From the UHGV virus genome UHGV-0141996: a DNA stretch of 13,855 bases; one strand, 5' to 3'. The notes below the pieces were generated by a model, which worked only from the letters and a program-made list of their open reading frames with translations, was not told where the DNA came from and searched no databases. Of this stretch, positions 1-12,584 are shown piece by piece. Source of the DNA: a virus. Both the position numbers and the translations under genes were made by a program. Numbering within the stretch: the stretch's first letter is position 1; every line of letters begins with the position of its first letter.

Positions 1-15
1 GGTGTGTTTGAAAGT

Positions 16-39
16 GCGCGGGGGGGGTCATTCCCGCGC
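16..39 (-). terminator. Candidate hairpin downstream of the 50..964 minus-strand gene
   Basis: GC-rich inverted repeat GCGCGGG (16-22) / CCCGCGC (33-39) with a 10-nt loop, just 3' of the minus-strand stop at 50-52. The U-tract on the minus strand is poor (ACTTTCAAAC), so intrinsic-terminator status is uncertain. Confidence 0.3.
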
Positions 40-49
40 GTCCGGCGCT

Positions 50-964
50 TTATGGTAAGTATTTAAGTATTTCTGCTGCCCAGTTTACACGGTGGATGAC
101 ACGGGCATGGTGCAAGTTTCCGTCTAGTATTTCGGCTTTAGTTAGCTGGGATAACTGCTGCCAATTATTGTTAAGTATATAAGTTGCGTTATTACATTGT
201 GAGCTTTCTAGCACGTAAATGTTTTGGCCTGTGAACCCAAATATCACGTAGCCTTGGAACCCAGCTTGCCCAACCGCTACGAAATCTGGTTTTTTACTAT
301 TGATAAGTTCAAGTCTGCCTTCAACAACAGCGGTATTGCCCTTTCCCCTGATCTTAATAGCTGAAAGGATTTTTGAACCGATAGTACTCCAAGGCTGTTG
401 ACCCTGAGGCAGGAGGCTCCAGTTTAGTTTTATAGATTTACTTTTAACGATGGTATTAAGTTGGTCGTCAACAGTTTCGCACAACCCAAAAAGCTCTAAA
501 AAAAGATTAATGCAGTGAGCCACTAACTCTTTGTTGTTAGCTGTCAAACTTAGCTTTGGAGAGATGATCAACTTCTCCCCTTGCAGATTCTCTACAATCT
601 TTAACTCTATGCTTGGTGGAGGGGTGAGGATTCTCTTGTAGCGCTTATACTCAATTTCACGAGTGTCAGTAACTTCTTGAGTTGCGCCCCCTCCGATCCA
701 TTGCTTTCTAGTCCATGAAATTTGTCTGTATGCAGTTTCTTTAGGTGCTGTTTTGTCAGGTACTGATTTGCCATTAGCATTGAATCTGGTTATTGGCCCT
801 AAAATTTTGGGGAGGACTTCTTCACCTAAAGCTCTTTGACTTGAGAAACCAATAGAGTCCGTTTTCCCCGCATCTGGCAAAGAATGTGCAATGTAGATAT
901 CACGGCCATCAAAGTTAGGTATGTAATTATCAATATTTCGAATACGCTTTTTCTGAATAAGCAT
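50..964 (-). CDS. Hypothetical protein, 304 aa, AT-rich orphan; no recognisable motifs
   Basis: Uninterrupted 304-codon ORF with ATG start and a good Shine-Dalgarno (AAGGA, 7 nt upstream on the minus strand). Composition is visibly more AT-rich than the central operon. Hairpin immediately downstream. No catalytic or family motif recognised by eye. Confidence 0.7.
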   Translation of the reverse strand: MLIQKKRIRNIDNYIPNFDGRDIYIAHSLPDAGKTDSIGFSSQRALGEEVLPKILGPITRFNANGKSVPDKTAPKETAYRQISWTRKQWIGGGATQEVTDTREIEYKRYKRILTPPPSIELKIVENLQGEKLIISPKLSLTANNKELVAHCINLFLELFGLCETVDDQLNTIVKSKSIKLNWSLLPQGQQPWSTIGSKILSAIKIRGKGNTAVVEGRLELINSKKPDFVAVGQAGFQGYVIFGFTGQNIYVLESSQCNNATYILNNNWQQLSQLTKAEILDGNLHHARVIHRVNWAAEILKYLP

Positions 965-1802
965 GGATCGTTCCTTTTGATTTTATCTTACTGTTTACAT
1001 AACCAACCAAGCCGGGCACAATCGAGCCGTTAGAGACGATAGTGAGGCTAACAATCGTTATGAGTTTGCAGACTCATGGCGGTCATGCTTCATAGACCGG
1101 ATTCACGCAGGTGACTCCGGTTTTTTTATGCCCATCATTTATACATGGGCACAACATATAGGGTGTGTTAATAAGATTACCCCCTACATGTTCAGCATTC
1201 TAGTTAGGATTCTTTGCAGTACAAGGGTTGATTTTGAGGTTAAATTGAGGTTGTCAAAGGGAAATTTCGACCAACCCTACGTGCCGTAAGGCTTAGGCTG
1301 TATGTCAATGTTTCAGAAAAAAAAATGAAAATTTGATCGAGTGCTGATTTCTTTAGCACGAGAACATGAGATCGAACCAAAATATTGCAAAGTTTTGAAC
1401 AAAACTTGAACTGCCTCGTGTCTCCATAGCCAAGACGAATGCAGTTTAAATAAGCTAAGTCAGCTCTCAAAAGTCCTTTATGACCCGAACCAAAAATTGT
1501 ACCTCTTAAACCCCACCGCAAGCGGCTCTCCGGGGTTTGTGCGCATGGAGTAATGCGGTTGTACTGGGTATGTGCGCACAACCCTCTACAAGCCGCATTC
1601 TACCGTTAGCCTATAGCTGAATCCCCGGCTTGAAAAATTGCACGCTTATGGTTGCCCCTCCCTCAACTCTATAGCTCGCCCGCGCCCCCGTGCGCATGTG
1701 CGTGCCCGCGCGTCAGGGGTCGCTGAGAAAACCCTAAGATTTTGCTCATCCGAGGCAACCGTTGCAGGCGCGTGTTGCCGAGGGCACACTGCCAGTGTTT
1801 GA

Positions 1803-1908
1803 TGGTGTCATCAATCGTTCGATTCTTGCTACCTTCCTGAGTGATTACTATCTGGTGTCATCAATTTAGGGTTTGACTAAATGCTACCACCAATGCAATG
1901 ATGCTACC
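1803..1908 (+). promoter_or_regulatory. Repeat-bearing leader/promoter region upstream of the serine recombinase gene
   Basis: Exact 13-bp direct repeat TGGTGTCATCAAT at 1803-1815 and 1853-1865 (50 bp centre-to-centre). ATGCTACC at 1881-1888 and 1901-1908, plus TTGCTACC at 1826-1833. TTGACT -35-like hexamer at 1873-1878. SD GGAGAGGTG precedes the ATG at 1940. Confidence 0.35.
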
Positions 1909-1939
1909 GTTTTGTGATACCAGACGGGAGAGGTGAAGC

Positions 1940-2515: not shown

Positions 2516-3215
2516 TGGCCTACAACCGAATGAGGTGCTATGACTGGCCGTTACTGGGCTGTGGGTGATGGATGACCTACAGCTTTTGTATTAATTTCAG
2601 AGGGTTATGTTATGCGTAATATCATAACGATATGATTTATAATGTATTTTCGTATTACTTGCGGCTCTCGATGTGAAGAGGTGGCGGGGCTTTAGCCGTG
2701 CCAGACGATGAACATCGAGATCAGATTGTGAATGTGATTCATCACTGAACAATTCGAGGGATGGGGCAGGGGAAGGGATCAAAGGCTGCGTTGTCCAATC
2801 ACTAAGCTAGATTTGAAGCTGGTCAACACGTTAGTAGTATCTTTAAAGTTGCATTTTAAATACATGTACAAGAAAGGGTTCTTCCCTTACATCCCTTCTC
2901 CTAAATGTAGTTACGAGTGCTTCGCTCTCTTCACTTGCTGCGCTTCTCGCTATGCTCCAGCCCGCTCCATCGCCTTTGGCTCATTCCCGGACTTCGCCCG
3001 CTGTGATGCTCGGCCACTCTACGCAACCGTGCTTGCCGTGGCAGGCAACGCGGCGGGGATGTGTAGTGGAACGGTACTCTGTATCGGTATGATTACTGTA
3101 TTCAATCACATACTGGTATCAGTAGGTATCCTTCAAAACATCTTCATTCATTTCTGTATCGTTCAATCATCTTTCTTGTTCGTTTCCTTTCAGGTCTTAG
3201 CCGTTGGTCATTGGT

Positions 3216-3330
3216 CTTACTGCCTGCTGTGCTACTGCCAGCTATGGCACGCCGTCACGGTCTACTGTCTGTTACCTGTCCTACTGCCTTCACTGTCTGC
3301 CGTCTGTCAGTCCTACGGTCTGCCATCCGT
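3216..3330 (+). repeat. Iteron-like short repeat cluster in a pyrimidine-skewed ORF-poor region
   Basis: YTACTGYC-type motifs at 3216-3224 (CTTACTGCC), 3231-3239 (GCTACTGCC), 3261-3271 (TCTACTGTCTG) and 3281-3288 (CTACTGCC). CTGTCTG-type motifs at 3293-3308. Tandem CATCCGT CATCCGT at about 3324-3337. The plus strand is strongly C/T-rich. Confidence 0.4.
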
Positions 3331-3778
3331 CATCCGTTCGGCGCTCGCTTGTTTCGGCTGCGCCGCGCTCGCTCTGCGTATCTAGCGATACTATATCACT
3401 ATAGACACTTTCATAATTATATAATGATTACAGTAACTTATGTTTTCTGTTTTAAAAGCTACTAATAAGGAGATATAGAGCATTACTTACCCGCTTTTGA
3501 CCGACAAAAATCGCGTTGTTAAGTATTGCCAGCCCAGGCTCAATAAGGCTTAGCGAGGTGGTGGCTAAAAAATGAGCTAATGAAGGTATCTACTAAGGAG
3601 AAAGAATAACTCCCGAAGCGCGACAAACTCTCCGATTTTGAAAGTGACTATTAAGGCAGATAAAGACACTGACACTGTTGCTGACATGAAAACTTCTAAA
3701 AGGGCAGAGAGTCTGCCGAACCCGTACCGCTGACCCAACCTGAGCTAATACCTACCCCTATTTTCTGGAGATTTCACC

Positions 3779-5623
3779 ATGCCAACAAACCTACGCCGCC
3801 TGCTTGCGCAGGCTGCCGACGCTGACCCGCTCAATACTGCGGACGCAGATGTACAGCAAATGATCGCTGACGGGATTGTTATTCGACGTTCCAAGATATG
3901 CCCTGTAAAGCGTAAACCCGTTAAGGCGGCATACAACACAAAGACCGAAGAGTTTTATTACAATGCAGATGGCTCCGCGATGACCTTGCGGGAGTGGCGA
4001 ACGCTGCACGGTGTTCAACCGAAGAAACAAAAACAGCGCTCTGACACTGGGTTGCGGCAAGTCATCCAGCCCGGCGACGCGATTCACTGCCGACGCGCTG
4101 AGATTGAGCAATGGCTTAATAAGAAGCCCGCTCGTTATGTTGACCCGCTGCCGCCAGATTTTCCCGGTGTTCGCGTAGACGATGCCGCATTGAAACCGCG
4201 CGAGCACGCCGTGCCGGAAGCGACAACCGGACAGAATGCTTTTCTCAAAGCCTGCCGCGAGTTCCTGATTTGCGATGAGAAGACCATGCGCCGTATCAGT
4301 CGGGGCATGAACCAAATGGAAGCTATGCGCAACGCAGATTTCAAACGCTACGGAGACTCAGGGGAGTTTCGTCAATTGTGGTGTGGAGAGTCGAAGCCTA
4401 CCGAAGATAGATTTAATAGTTCTAATCATCATTGTGACCCGAACGGCTTGGCTGCTTCGCCGTCTGTGCCGCCACTGAATACTGCACCGTATGAGTTCCG
4501 CCCGCTGGCTCGCTGTGACCGAAACGCACGCGTTAGCCTGCTGCCACCTGATGGGCTGGAGTGGAGGCCGGGGCAGTTGTCTGTTGCTGATGCGATCTTT
4601 TCCCGTGGCAGTGATGTGCTTGCCGTACTGCCGACCGGGTATGGCAAAAGCGCCGCCTTCACTTATCCATTGATTTATGAGTCCCGCGCTGGCATTGGCC
4701 TGTCTGTAATCGTGGTTCCTACTAATACCCTTAAGCGTCAGATTCTCCGCCAGTTGCGGGAGGCTGGCATTCACGCTGTGGCCTTTGGCGATAAGCTACC
4801 GAGGCACCGCAACGCACAACAACTGGCGGGACTAGCAGCCGGGGCGTTCCGGGTTGCTGTTGTTTCGCCTGAACATCTGGTTCCGTCGAGTCAGGTTCTC
4901 GCGGCGCTGATGGCTTATGGCGTTGATCGTTTTATTATCGATGAGGCACACACGGTCAAAGACTGGGATTTCCGCCCAGCTTACGACGCAATGCAGCACA
5001 CACTACAGAATGCTTTTCCCTCGGCTCAGCGCTGCGTGTTTACGGCTACTCTACTACGTGAAAATGAGAGCGGTTTAATGGAGGCGCTGGGATGCCGTGG
5101 CGATTACGTTACATTCCGTGCTGATGTTGCTCGCGAGAATATCCAGTTGATTCCGGTCAGGCAGTGCCGCCAGCGATACCGCGCGGCTGTTGGTCTGGTC
5201 GAGGCTCTGCCAGAGGAAGAGAAGACGCTCATTCTAGTCAATGACCTTAAGACGTTGCGGGCGTACCTGAAACTCTTCGGCGACCGGGCGCGCCCATATC
5301 ACTCGAAGACGATGCACCTGAGCAACGAGGAACGCCACGCAAACGCTGAGTGGTTTGCCTCTGCGCCGGGCGCGATTCTGATTGCTACTAAAGCCTTCGG
5401 GCTGGGTGCTGATGTTCCTGATATCCGTAACGTTGTCGTGACATACGTTCCCGATGACTTGCCTGATCTCGTTCAGATGATTGGACGAGCCGGGCGCGAT
5501 GGGGAACCTGCCCGCGCTTTTCTGCTGTGGTCATCGCTGGCGCTGGATGTTGCTCCTGATGAGCTTGCTTACTTCTACCGCCCTGAAAACTGTAACTGGC
5601 AGTACATCGCTAAATACCTCTGA
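3779..5623 (+). CDS. RecQ-like superfamily-2 DNA helicase, 614 aa, with a roughly 280-aa N-terminal region of unknown function
   Basis: Helicase motif I LPTGYGKSAAF, motif II DEAH box FIIDEAHTV followed by DWDFRPAY (RecQ-like), FTATL, and motif VI QMIGRAGRDG. SD GGAG 9 nt upstream of the ATG. The N-terminal region has no recognisable primase or helicase motif. Confidence 0.85.
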   Translation: MPTNLRRLLAQAADADPLNTADADVQQMIADGIVIRRSKICPVKRKPVKAAYNTKTEEFYYNADGSAMTLREWRTLHGVQPKKQKQRSDTGLRQVIQPGDAIHCRRAEIEQWLNKKPARYVDPLPPDFPGVRVDDAALKPREHAVPEATTGQNAFLKACREFLICDEKTMRRISRGMNQMEAMRNADFKRYGDSGEFRQLWCGESKPTEDRFNSSNHHCDPNGLAASPSVPPLNTAPYEFRPLARCDRNARVSLLPPDGLEWRPGQLSVADAIFSRGSDVLAVLPTGYGKSAAFTYPLIYESRAGIGLSVIVVPTNTLKRQILRQLREAGIHAVAFGDKLPRHRNAQQLAGLAAGAFRVAVVSPEHLVPSSQVLAALMAYGVDRFIIDEAHTVKDWDFRPAYDAMQHTLQNAFPSAQRCVFTATLLRENESGLMEALGCRGDYVTFRADVARENIQLIPVRQCRQRYRAAVGLVEALPEEEKTLILVNDLKTLRAYLKLFGDRARPYHSKTMHLSNEERHANAEWFASAPGAILIATKAFGLGADVPDIRNVVVTYVPDDLPDLVQMIGRAGRDGEPARAFLLWSSLALDVAPDELAYFYRPENCNWQYIAKYL

Positions 5624-11681: not shown

Positions 11682-12584
11682 TCAAACAGGAATGTTGTAG
11701 TAATGACAAATGGCATTAGTTAGTAGAGCTGGTGCAGCAGATGCTGCAATATTTAGCGTTCCCGCATATGCTTTACCAATCATATCACCAAGCCACCCTC
11801 CAACTTTTCCTCCTAAATTATCCATAGTGGTGGGCACTGGAGATTCTTGTATAGCTTGCTGAAGCGTTGTTATGTCTGCTTCTGAAACTCCCCATTCTTT
11901 AAGTTGTTTCTCCAGCGAATTAAAATCTCCTGCTATAATCGTGTTATTCTGGTTAATGTCTCCAGTATTCCCAGCACCAATACTGCCTGCATTATTAACT
12001 GCGCCATTAAAAATATTAGTATTGTTAACCGTCATAGGAGCGACCTCTTTTTCTGCCTGAGTGAACAATAACCCTTCACCCATAATCCCCTGTTTTTCTA
12101 ATTCAAGTGACCAATCAAGAATCTTGTTTCTTACAGTTGTGACTATGTGAGCAAATTTACCAGAACTAAAGAACCAGCATATTTCAGGTCTTGAATGTTG
12201 ATCGTGATATAACATTTCAGCCATTTCTAGTGGGATAGGGAGCCTTATATTTCCTTTTGTGCCCTCTGCTCGTATCATTGATGCTATAGATTCAGTGAGT
12301 GTATAAGTAGTAAACTTACGCATAATCTTTGCGCTTATGTTACCAAGATCAACTGGAATCCAGCCGTTGAAAGGGTTATAGGCTTTTAACTGACCGTGCC
12401 CAGTTCTATATTCTGGGGCTGATGCAATTGTAGGGTAGCCATTCAATTCGTGCTCAATCCAGCCTGTAACATCTTCCAGGCCAAGCTTGACGGCTATTAC
12501 TTTAGCTTTCATTAAAAGAGCGATAATATCAGTGTTAGGATCGCTTGCAAGAGCTTGAAGTTCAAGAACTGGTGAGTTAGCCAT
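11682..12584 (-). CDS. AT-rich cargo gene, 300 aa; putative AbiTii-like abortive-infection protein with Asn/Gly-rich C-terminal half
   Basis: Intact ORF with strong SD (TAAGGA 6 nt upstream on the minus strand). N-terminus (LELQALASD..IIALLMKAKVIAVKLGLEDVTGWIEHELNGY) resembles AbiTii-type domains as I recall them; unverified. C-terminal half is N/G-rich low complexity ending in a hydrophobic segment. Located between the integrase and the phage-like operon; markedly AT-rich. Confidence 0.45.
   Translation of the reverse strand: MANSPVLELQALASDPNTDIIALLMKAKVIAVKLGLEDVTGWIEHELNGYPTIASAPEYRTGHGQLKAYNPFNGWIPVDLGNISAKIMRKFTTYTLTESIASMIRAEGTKGNIRLPIPLEMAEMLYHDQHSRPEICWFFSSGKFAHIVTTVRNKILDWSLELEKQGIMGEGLLFTQAEKEVAPMTVNNTNIFNGAVNNAGSIGAGNTGDINQNNTIIAGDFNSLEKQLKEWGVSEADITTLQQAIQESPVPTTMDNLGGKVGGWLGDMIGKAYAGTLNIAASAAPALLTNAICHYYNIPV

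Follow-up and report, generated by a model that had tools for sequence, protein, structure and literature searches.

The tRNA-Leu island and its recombinase

The stretch of viral DNA analysed in this work (13,855 nucleotides of UHGV virus genome UHGV-0141996, hereafter referred to as the window) comprises most of an island of about 15 kb that is located beside tRNA-Leu (leuX) in E. coli, including the EPEC strain E2348/69. The left part of the island contains variable cargo, a predicted res site followed by a recombinase gene, a 1.2-kb non-coding stretch, a DEAD-box helicase gene and small ORFs. The right part contains genes for a scaffold-like protein, a major head protein, an HNH endonuclease and endonuclease VII, then a variable gene (AbiTii in the window) and a tyrosine integrase gene. 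In its overall composition the island looks like a phage satellite. The coordinates of the features considered below are collected in Table 1.

Table 1. Features of the left part of the window
Feature	Position	Strand	Remarks
Left arm with variable cargo, on the tRNA-Leu side of site I (tRNA-Leu itself is outside the window)	1–1803		differs among islands that share res and recombinase
304-aa cargo ORF	50–964	−	no Pfam, PHROG or PADLOC match
GC-rich (58%) non-coding mosaic	1500–1800		inverted repeat 1522–1545/1573–1596; repeated GTGCGCA
Site I, predicted crossover site: GGTGTCATCAATCG TT CGATTCTTGCTACC	1804–1833		two inverted 14-bp half-sites, symmetric at 10 of 14 positions
Central dinucleotide TT, predicted point of 2-bp staggered cleavage and exchange	1818–1819		geometric centre of site I
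Site II, predicted accessory site: GGTGTCATCAAT...ATGCTACC	1854–1888		inverted half-sites, 35-bp span
σ70-like promoter (predicted)	1873–1902	+	−35 TTGACT 1873–1878; −10 AATGAT 1897–1902; consensus scan
Site III, predicted accessory site, gene-proximal	1901–1921	+	TGCTACC 1902–1908 and TGATACC 1915–1921, direct orientation
Shine-Dalgarno-like GGAGAGG	1927–1933	+	6–9 nt 5′ of the ATG; read from the sequence
Small serine recombinase gene, 191 aa	1940–2515	+	resolvase catalytic domain and C-terminal HTH

Searches of the left-arm cargo against PADLOC and Pfam mostly returned no matches, the exceptions being one DUF3800/PDC-M04A and one Metallophos effector-like match. Since such matches are few, the defence nature of the cargo stays speculative. 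The 304-aa ORF is a candidate accessory or defence gene; an identical protein, WP_000908169.1, accompanies the left arm into the ECONIH4-type hybrid islands described below. The GC-rich mosaic had no Rfam match, and pieces of it are common to islands with other recombinases (1511–1680 in the case of KE47 and 1640–1782 in the case of VREC0864). The search for RNA genes yielded no tRNAs and no Rfam match at gathering thresholds.

Downstream of the recombinase gene, at 3214–3441, lie about 200 bp with short CTGTC-type repeats that are 87–98% identical to a stretch of Autographiviridae phages of about 42 kb. The counterpart is situated near the genome end of Bonnellvirus Kc261 and of the 'sur' coliphages. 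This identity, together with the island's own genes for a scaffold-like protein, a major head protein, an HNH endonuclease and endonuclease VII, suggests that the island may be a capsid-forming satellite of T7-like phages that mimics the packaging/terminal region of its helper. No description of T7-like phage satellites with this gene set was found in the literature. A second variable slot (11682–12584, minus strand) is located beside the tyrosine integrase gene. It is occupied by AbiTii in the window, by a DNA methyltransferase with a restriction endonuclease in KFu019 and by a TIR-domain protein in strain S1, and is probably a defence hotspot.

The recombinase consists of a catalytic domain (PF00239, E = 1.8e-36) and an HTH domain at residues 147–188 (PF02796, HTH_7, E = 3.2e-9). 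The closest solved structure is that of gamma-delta resolvase, which was aligned over the full length (E = 1.5e-23), and Tn3 resolvase was also among the top matches; Gin (4e-16) and Sin (9e-10) matched more weakly. In the alignment to 1gdt the RVST and DRLGRD motifs are conserved, R8 and S10 are present, and all catalytic residues of small serine recombinases (R8, S10, D67, R68 and R71 in gamma-delta numbering) were found and are invariant in 25 homologues. The regulatory (2-3′/R) interface comprises R2, R32, K54 and E56 of gamma-delta resolvase (PMC9943657), and the equivalents in the window protein are R2, R34, K59 and E61. In the family, R34 and E61 are invariant and R2 is found in at least 90% of members. 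We infer that the recombinase is a resolvase. NCBIfam gave only sub-threshold matches (XisF, Mpi, CcrB and IS607 models) and no useful classification. Our literature search found no paper on this recombinase family or its res site; in the literature on pipolins, small serine recombinases are mentioned only in passing as presumed resolvases.

Six half-sites upstream of the recombinase gene

The sequence-only reading of the window had pointed to two families of exact direct repeats within 140 bp upstream of the recombinase start and had likened them to resolvase half-sites. The repeats themselves are as described. The sequence TGGTGTCATCAAT occurs twice (1803–1815 and 1853–1865, starts 50 bp apart), ATGCTACC occurs twice as well (1881–1888 and 1901–1908, spacing 20 bp), and the first repeat begins 137 bp 5′ of the ATG at position 1940. 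Apart from the TGGTGTCATCAAT pair, no exact 13-mer in the window recurs in direct orientation within 100 bp, and just 1% of 500 simulations of the window by a first-order Markov model contained a comparable pair. The term direct repeats, however, holds only in part, since both families turned out to be one half-site motif on opposite strands: the reverse complement of GGTGTCAT, which is ATGACACC, is the motif of ATGCTACC with a difference at two central bases. The two copies of TGGTGTCATCAAT were reassigned, one to site I and one to site II, as their left half-sites, and the copies of ATGCTACC as right-hand half-sites.

With the strand taken into account, both families are spanned by the degenerate motif ATGMYACC. 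This motif has four copies in the 13.9 kb of the window, two on each strand, and all of them fall inside 1804–1908; none of 500 simulations contained four copies within 105 bp. Two extra degenerate half-sites, TTGCTACC at 1826–1833 and GTGATACC at 1914–1921, bring the total to six in 1804–1921. The identity of the motif across strands, the two degenerate copies and the inverted pairing had all been overlooked in the first reading.

The six half-sites are ordered < > < > > >, that is, as two inverted pairs spanning 30 and 35 bp that are followed by a direct pair. Site I is distal to the gene, site II comes next and site III is nearest to the ATG. The centre of site II is 52.5 bp away from the centre of site I, and the site II spacer contains a conserved TAG and the −35 element of the predicted promoter. 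This promoter has an 18-bp spacer, with TG preceding the −10 element. The −35 element belongs to the site II spacer; between −35 and −10 comes the right half of site II, and the −10 element abuts the fifth half-site. The best promoter match was at the same position in 17 of 32 homologous loci. Because the predicted promoter overlaps sites II and III, autorepression is plausible, and the half-sites probably autoregulate the recombinase gene.

The comparison with the half-sites bound by Tn3/gamma-delta resolvases had been based on a TGTC-containing core reminiscent of TGTCYNNTA. What stands of this comparison is the type of the half-sites, which are resolvase-like. The TGTC match is for the most part incidental: in the family the consensus reads GGTATCA(nn)AAA, and TGTCATCAA of the window agrees with the Tn3 half-site consensus TGTCYNNTA at only 5 of the 7 specified positions.

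A second copy of the site, which had been envisaged as a recombination partner elsewhere in the genome, was not found. Scans for the exact repeats (with up to 3 mismatches), for ATGMYACC and for the inverted-pair model detected none in the window or in about 55 related loci amounting to about 530 kb. The presence of a single site per locus fits the prediction for a resolvase, for which the partner would be the same site on a sister or tandem copy, and the absence of a second site argues against inversion and cassette models.

Conservation of the layout and comparison with known res sites

Relatives of the recombinase were collected by a scan at one genome per species, which gave 80 loci, and additionally by exact-protein look-ups and from plasmids. 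Conservation in homologous loci, on which the first reading had made its proposal depend, is evident. The same six-half-site map with the same offsets was found in about 38 loci with recombinases 52–70% identical, among them loci of Vibrio, Shewanella, Alteromonas, Moritella, Aeromonas, Pseudomonas, Tolumonas, Pantoea, Hafnia, Kluyvera and Cedecea and of two 4-kb plasmids. Essentially every locus with a recombinase in this range of identity has this layout of TGATACC-like half-sites in the 200 bp upstream of the gene. In an alignment of 32 loci the half-sites are at offsets <6, >29, <55–57, >83–87, >100–104 and >115–118; of the half-sites of site III, the fifth is missing from 4 loci and the sixth from 1. 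The information content in this alignment is 1.4–1.5 bits per column in the half-sites (1.47 in the sixth) and 0.3–0.6 in the spacers, i.e. the half-sites are conserved and the spacers are not. The inverted pair of site I, with exactly 16 bp between the 7-mers, is present once per locus and at a constant offset in nearly all homologous loci. The central dinucleotide varies (TT in 14 of the 32 loci, AC in 5, AA in 4, TC in 3 and others in 6), and the CGT that comes after it is conserved.

The half-site consensus of the family is GGTATCAAcAAACa, also written GGTATCAnnAAA. In one subgroup (L036–L038, L046 and L047) the layout is kept but the motif is different (AGCTCA/GAACC), and in an E. coli type-B relative the half-site motif is GCCA. 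Thus, the architecture is conserved, while the DNA-binding specificity drifts.

The module is also found outside tRNA-Leu islands. Plasmids of 4.1 kb and 4.3 kb carry the same recombinase/res module with little else besides a rep gene, and the obvious role of the module on such small plasmids would be multimer resolution. Citrobacter youngae plasmid pCF10-F (L094, 114–3264) carries a family member that is 67% identical, shares the res layout and is oriented divergently from its neighbours, a flagellin gene and a gene for a 'phase 1 flagellin repressor' (fljA-like). Islands of Vibrio whose insertion site is the Mg-chelatase gene comM/yifB (L085–L088, 5900–10600) combine a large serine integrase with a res/resolvase module and with a swappable two-gene cargo that consists of a YafO toxin, of Metallophos plus HAD, or of unknowns. 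In E. coli KE47 (L097, 5522–6154) and VREC0864 (L004, 5531–6151) an unrelated serine recombinase of 206–210 aa with different upstream repeats occupies the same slot, the satellite backbone being the same from helicase through capsid to integrase. The recombinase and its site therefore behave as a replaceable module.

Of the known systems, Tn3/gamma-delta res is similar in geometry. When the outermost base pairs are left aside, site I is 28 bp, the spacer 22 bp and site II 34 bp in most family members, with centres about 53 bp apart; in the window, without the outermost G/C, the values are 28, 22 and 33 bp, with centres 52.5 bp apart. The linker between sites I and II of Tn3/gamma-delta res is 22 bp (PMC9943657). 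Besides this 28-22-34 bp geometry, which sets site I and site II about five helical turns apart from centre to centre, the two systems share three dimer-binding subsites (predicted here) directly upstream of the gene, with I distal and III proximal, and a promoter under the accessory sites (likewise predicted here). The resolvases align over their full length, with E on the order of 1e-23, and the catalytic and R-interface residues are kept.

The two systems differ in sequence and in site III. The half-site is GGTATCAnnAAA here and TGTCYNNTA in Tn3. The central dinucleotide is TT here, non-palindromic and variable in the family, as opposed to AT in Tn3. Site III of Tn3 is a 25-bp inverted pair, whereas here it is a direct pair, 12–15 bp from start to start throughout the family. 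The site in the window is not in a transposon, in contrast to Tn3/gamma-delta: of the marks of Tn3-family membership (tnpA and 38-bp terminal inverted repeats), tnpA and the terminal inverted repeats are absent here, and no transposase was found in the window or in the RefSeq annotation of homologous islands. Membership of a Tn3 transposon was rejected, as the transposase is absent and the module sits in a tRNA-Leu island with a tyrosine integrase.

By its published description, the Res/res system of SGI1 (PMC12217951) is alike in setting, both being a Tn3-like res upstream of a small serine resolvase in an integrative, helper-dependent island. In SGI1 res, boxI has AC at its centre, boxIII shows only weak symmetry and boxII is overlapped by the promoter (Veress, Szabo and Kiss 2025, PMC12217951). 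In experiments, SGI1 Res bound three subsites, resolved cointegrates and eliminated tandem multimers (PMC12217951). In the window, the corresponding arrangement is a res with a resolvase gene inside a tRNA-Leu island with a tyrosine integrase, with the predicted promoter over sites II and III. The differences are that SGI1 is mobilised by IncA/C plasmids, whereas the island in the window resembles a phage satellite with its own capsid gene, and that in most SGI1 the res is split by an integron, whereas here it is intact.

Two more distant systems share single traits with the site. The accessory site of Sin/beta res, site II in Sin, is made of direct-repeat half-sites (PMC9943657), like site III here. 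Sin res, however, has only two subsites and needs an architectural protein (Hbsu/IHF), unlike the present site, and the protein match to Sin is weaker (E as given above). Hin and Gin are also small serine recombinases with a C-terminal HTH, but hix/gix sites act with an inverted partner site and an invertible segment, neither of which was found here. Invertase systems also have a Fis-bound enhancer and lack accessory recombinase sites, and accessory sites are present here.

Hybrid islands joined at site I and the role of the site

About 100 E. coli genomes match the window only as far as position 1817. In E2348/69 and Trabulsiella, homology to the window begins at 1803. In ECONIH4, collinearity with window-type islands begins at tRNA-Leu, includes the 304-aa ORF and lasts until ...TGGTGTCATCAATCG. 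With AC CGTTTTCTGGCACC it gives way to 99.6% collinearity with the leuX island of E. coli 042, which is related to the O157:H7 leuX island. The 042-type island possesses an integrase of its own, and its recombinase shares 48% identity with that of the window. The junction of this A/B hybrid is at 1817/1818, so that the switch between the parents occurs within 2 bp of the centre of site I. The hybrid is carried by 87 E. coli genomes (RefSeq), and in ECONIH4 both integrases are lost.

Tandem occupancy of leuX occurs in E. coli 042. In addition, 490 bp located 3′ of tRNA-Leu in window-type islands (L001, 3510–4000) recur at the right end of the 042-type island (L095, 9292–9781), which indicates tandem or serial occupancy of leuX by different islands. 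The structure of the hybrid is that which a recombinase-mediated deletion between directly repeated res sites of tandem leuX islands would be expected to produce. Since these natural hybrids join exactly at the centre of site I, they suggest that the res system has been used in the wild. The A/B hybrid may go back to a single event followed by clonal spread. There is a caveat: to form the hybrid, two heterologous sites must have recombined although their recombinases share only 48% identity, and canonical resolvases recombine heterologous sites poorly. In Shewanella, the left half of site I is missing from the central TT outward in one locus (L017, ~3850–3880), and in another (L020, ~3850–3880) the left half, GGGCTCAAAAAGCC, resembles the AGCTCA-type half-site of the other subgroup; because of this resemblance, L020 is a possible second heterologous hybrid.

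The conserved layout, the Tn3/gamma-delta-like geometry, the class of the protein, the overlap with the predicted promoter and the hybrid junction all support the resolvase half-site reading, in which binding is predicted. We conclude that 1804–1921 is very probably a three-subsite res-like site of the adjacent recombinase.

As to its function, we consider it likely that the site and its recombinase form a resolution system: the island, whether excised or in tandem, would be maintained as a monomer, the recombinase gene would be autorepressed, and exchange of arms would be a by-product. This reading is based on the presence of the module on nearly empty small plasmids, on the single site per island and on the precedent of SGI1. 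Recombinase dimers would bind to all three sites. If one molecule carries two copies of res as direct repeats, the accessory sites would build a synaptosome via the R interface. The predicted topological selectivity is that of Tn3/gamma-delta-type systems, in which resolution is confined to directly repeated sites of one supercoiled molecule; strand exchange would then take place at site I, with the cut at the central TT, and the intervening DNA would be deleted. Plausible substrates are tandem islands at tRNA-Leu and dimers that arise while the excised island replicates. When sites II and III are occupied, the gene's own promoter would be covered, resulting in autorepression. The by-product would be a deletion between the res sites of two different islands in tandem at the same tRNA, which would join the left cargo arm of one island and the body of its neighbour. 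One counterpoint concerns the helper: if a T7-like phage packages the island from concatemers, the benefit of multimer resolution is not obvious.

Dedicated exchange or capture of cargo, in which site I would be the swap point for the tRNA-proximal cargo arm, somewhat like integron attI, appears unlikely to us. It would account for a variable region that ends exactly at the outer edge of site I both in E. coli and in the Vibrio comM islands, where it is the two-gene cargo that stops there, and it agrees with the A/B hybrid at the site centre, with the two aberrant left halves in Shewanella and with the match of some cargo proteins to candidate defence families. Each island, however, has one site and none at the other end of the cargo, hence there is no cassette structure; the module is present on the cargo-free 4-kb plasmids too; and the accessory sites and R-interface residues are hallmarks of enzymes confined to intramolecular deletion. 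Moreover, functional constraint alone also predicts a homology boundary at the edge of the site. For this reason the break in homology at the outer edge was rejected as proof of exchange by the recombinase. The edge-of-site boundary in E2348/69 and Vibrio could reflect functional constraint plus homologous recombination elsewhere, and the Vibrio cargo boundary is compatible with recombinase-mediated exchange but not decisive.

A related proposal, which we put forward tentatively and hold to be possible rather than likely, is that the res site is the means by which islands and satellites sharing an attachment site trade the att-proximal cargo arm, via tandem deletion by the recombinase, repeatedly making chimeras, even where the res sites are heterologous and the recombinases only 48% identical. 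In this reading the arm probably carries defence genes. If true, such trading would account for the exact end of the hypervariable region at site I in both E. coli and Vibrio.

It is very improbable that the half-sites are an operator only, with the recombinase-like protein acting as an autorepressor or regulator whose recombination activity is lost or irrelevant. The half-sites do overlap the predicted promoter, and resolvases are known autorepressors. Yet site I, 40–70 bp upstream of the −35 element, is the best-conserved element and is a precise inverted pair with a conserved CGT adjoining its centre; the catalytic residues are all invariant across the family, and the natural junctions are at the site I centre.

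The chances of an inversion switch of the Hin/Gin type, with the repeats as hix-like crossover sites, are extremely small. Relatives of the protein are annotated by JGI as 'DNA invertase Pin-like', and the plasmid relative on pCF10-F has the flagellin and repressor genes as neighbours. The core of the family half-site, TATCAAAAA, also appears to resemble the hix half-site, TTATCAAAAACC, and the non-palindromic central dinucleotide that of hix. Against inversion stand the lack of an inverted second site in the window and in the ~55 loci (~530 kb), the four accessory half-sites conserved beside site I, and a protein that matches gamma-delta resolvase better than Gin and has retained the residues of the R interface. 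Finally, the repeats are not a functionless chance occurrence, a reading for which nothing speaks but the shortness of the 8-mer repeat and which is already refuted by the simulations and by the conservation of the layout across genera.

With the resolution system as the likely function, what has been annotated generically as a 'recombinase family protein' becomes a defined resolution module, whose base-pair-level sites allow hundreds of islands, satellites and small plasmids to be searched for it. Region 1795–1930 provides a concrete, testable substrate for a resolvase family of which we found no description in the literature. The general understanding of serine resolvases is unchanged, as the class of mechanism is textbook knowledge and an island-borne example has already been characterised. 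The most interesting by-products of the analysis are the natural heterologous hybrid and the cargo boundary that coincides with site I in distant lineages. The hybrid junction is natural evidence that a resolvase can fuse tandem islands at a tRNA hotspot, and such fusion would be a route to mosaic defence islands and to immobilised islands, like the ECONIH4 hybrid with neither of the two integrases.
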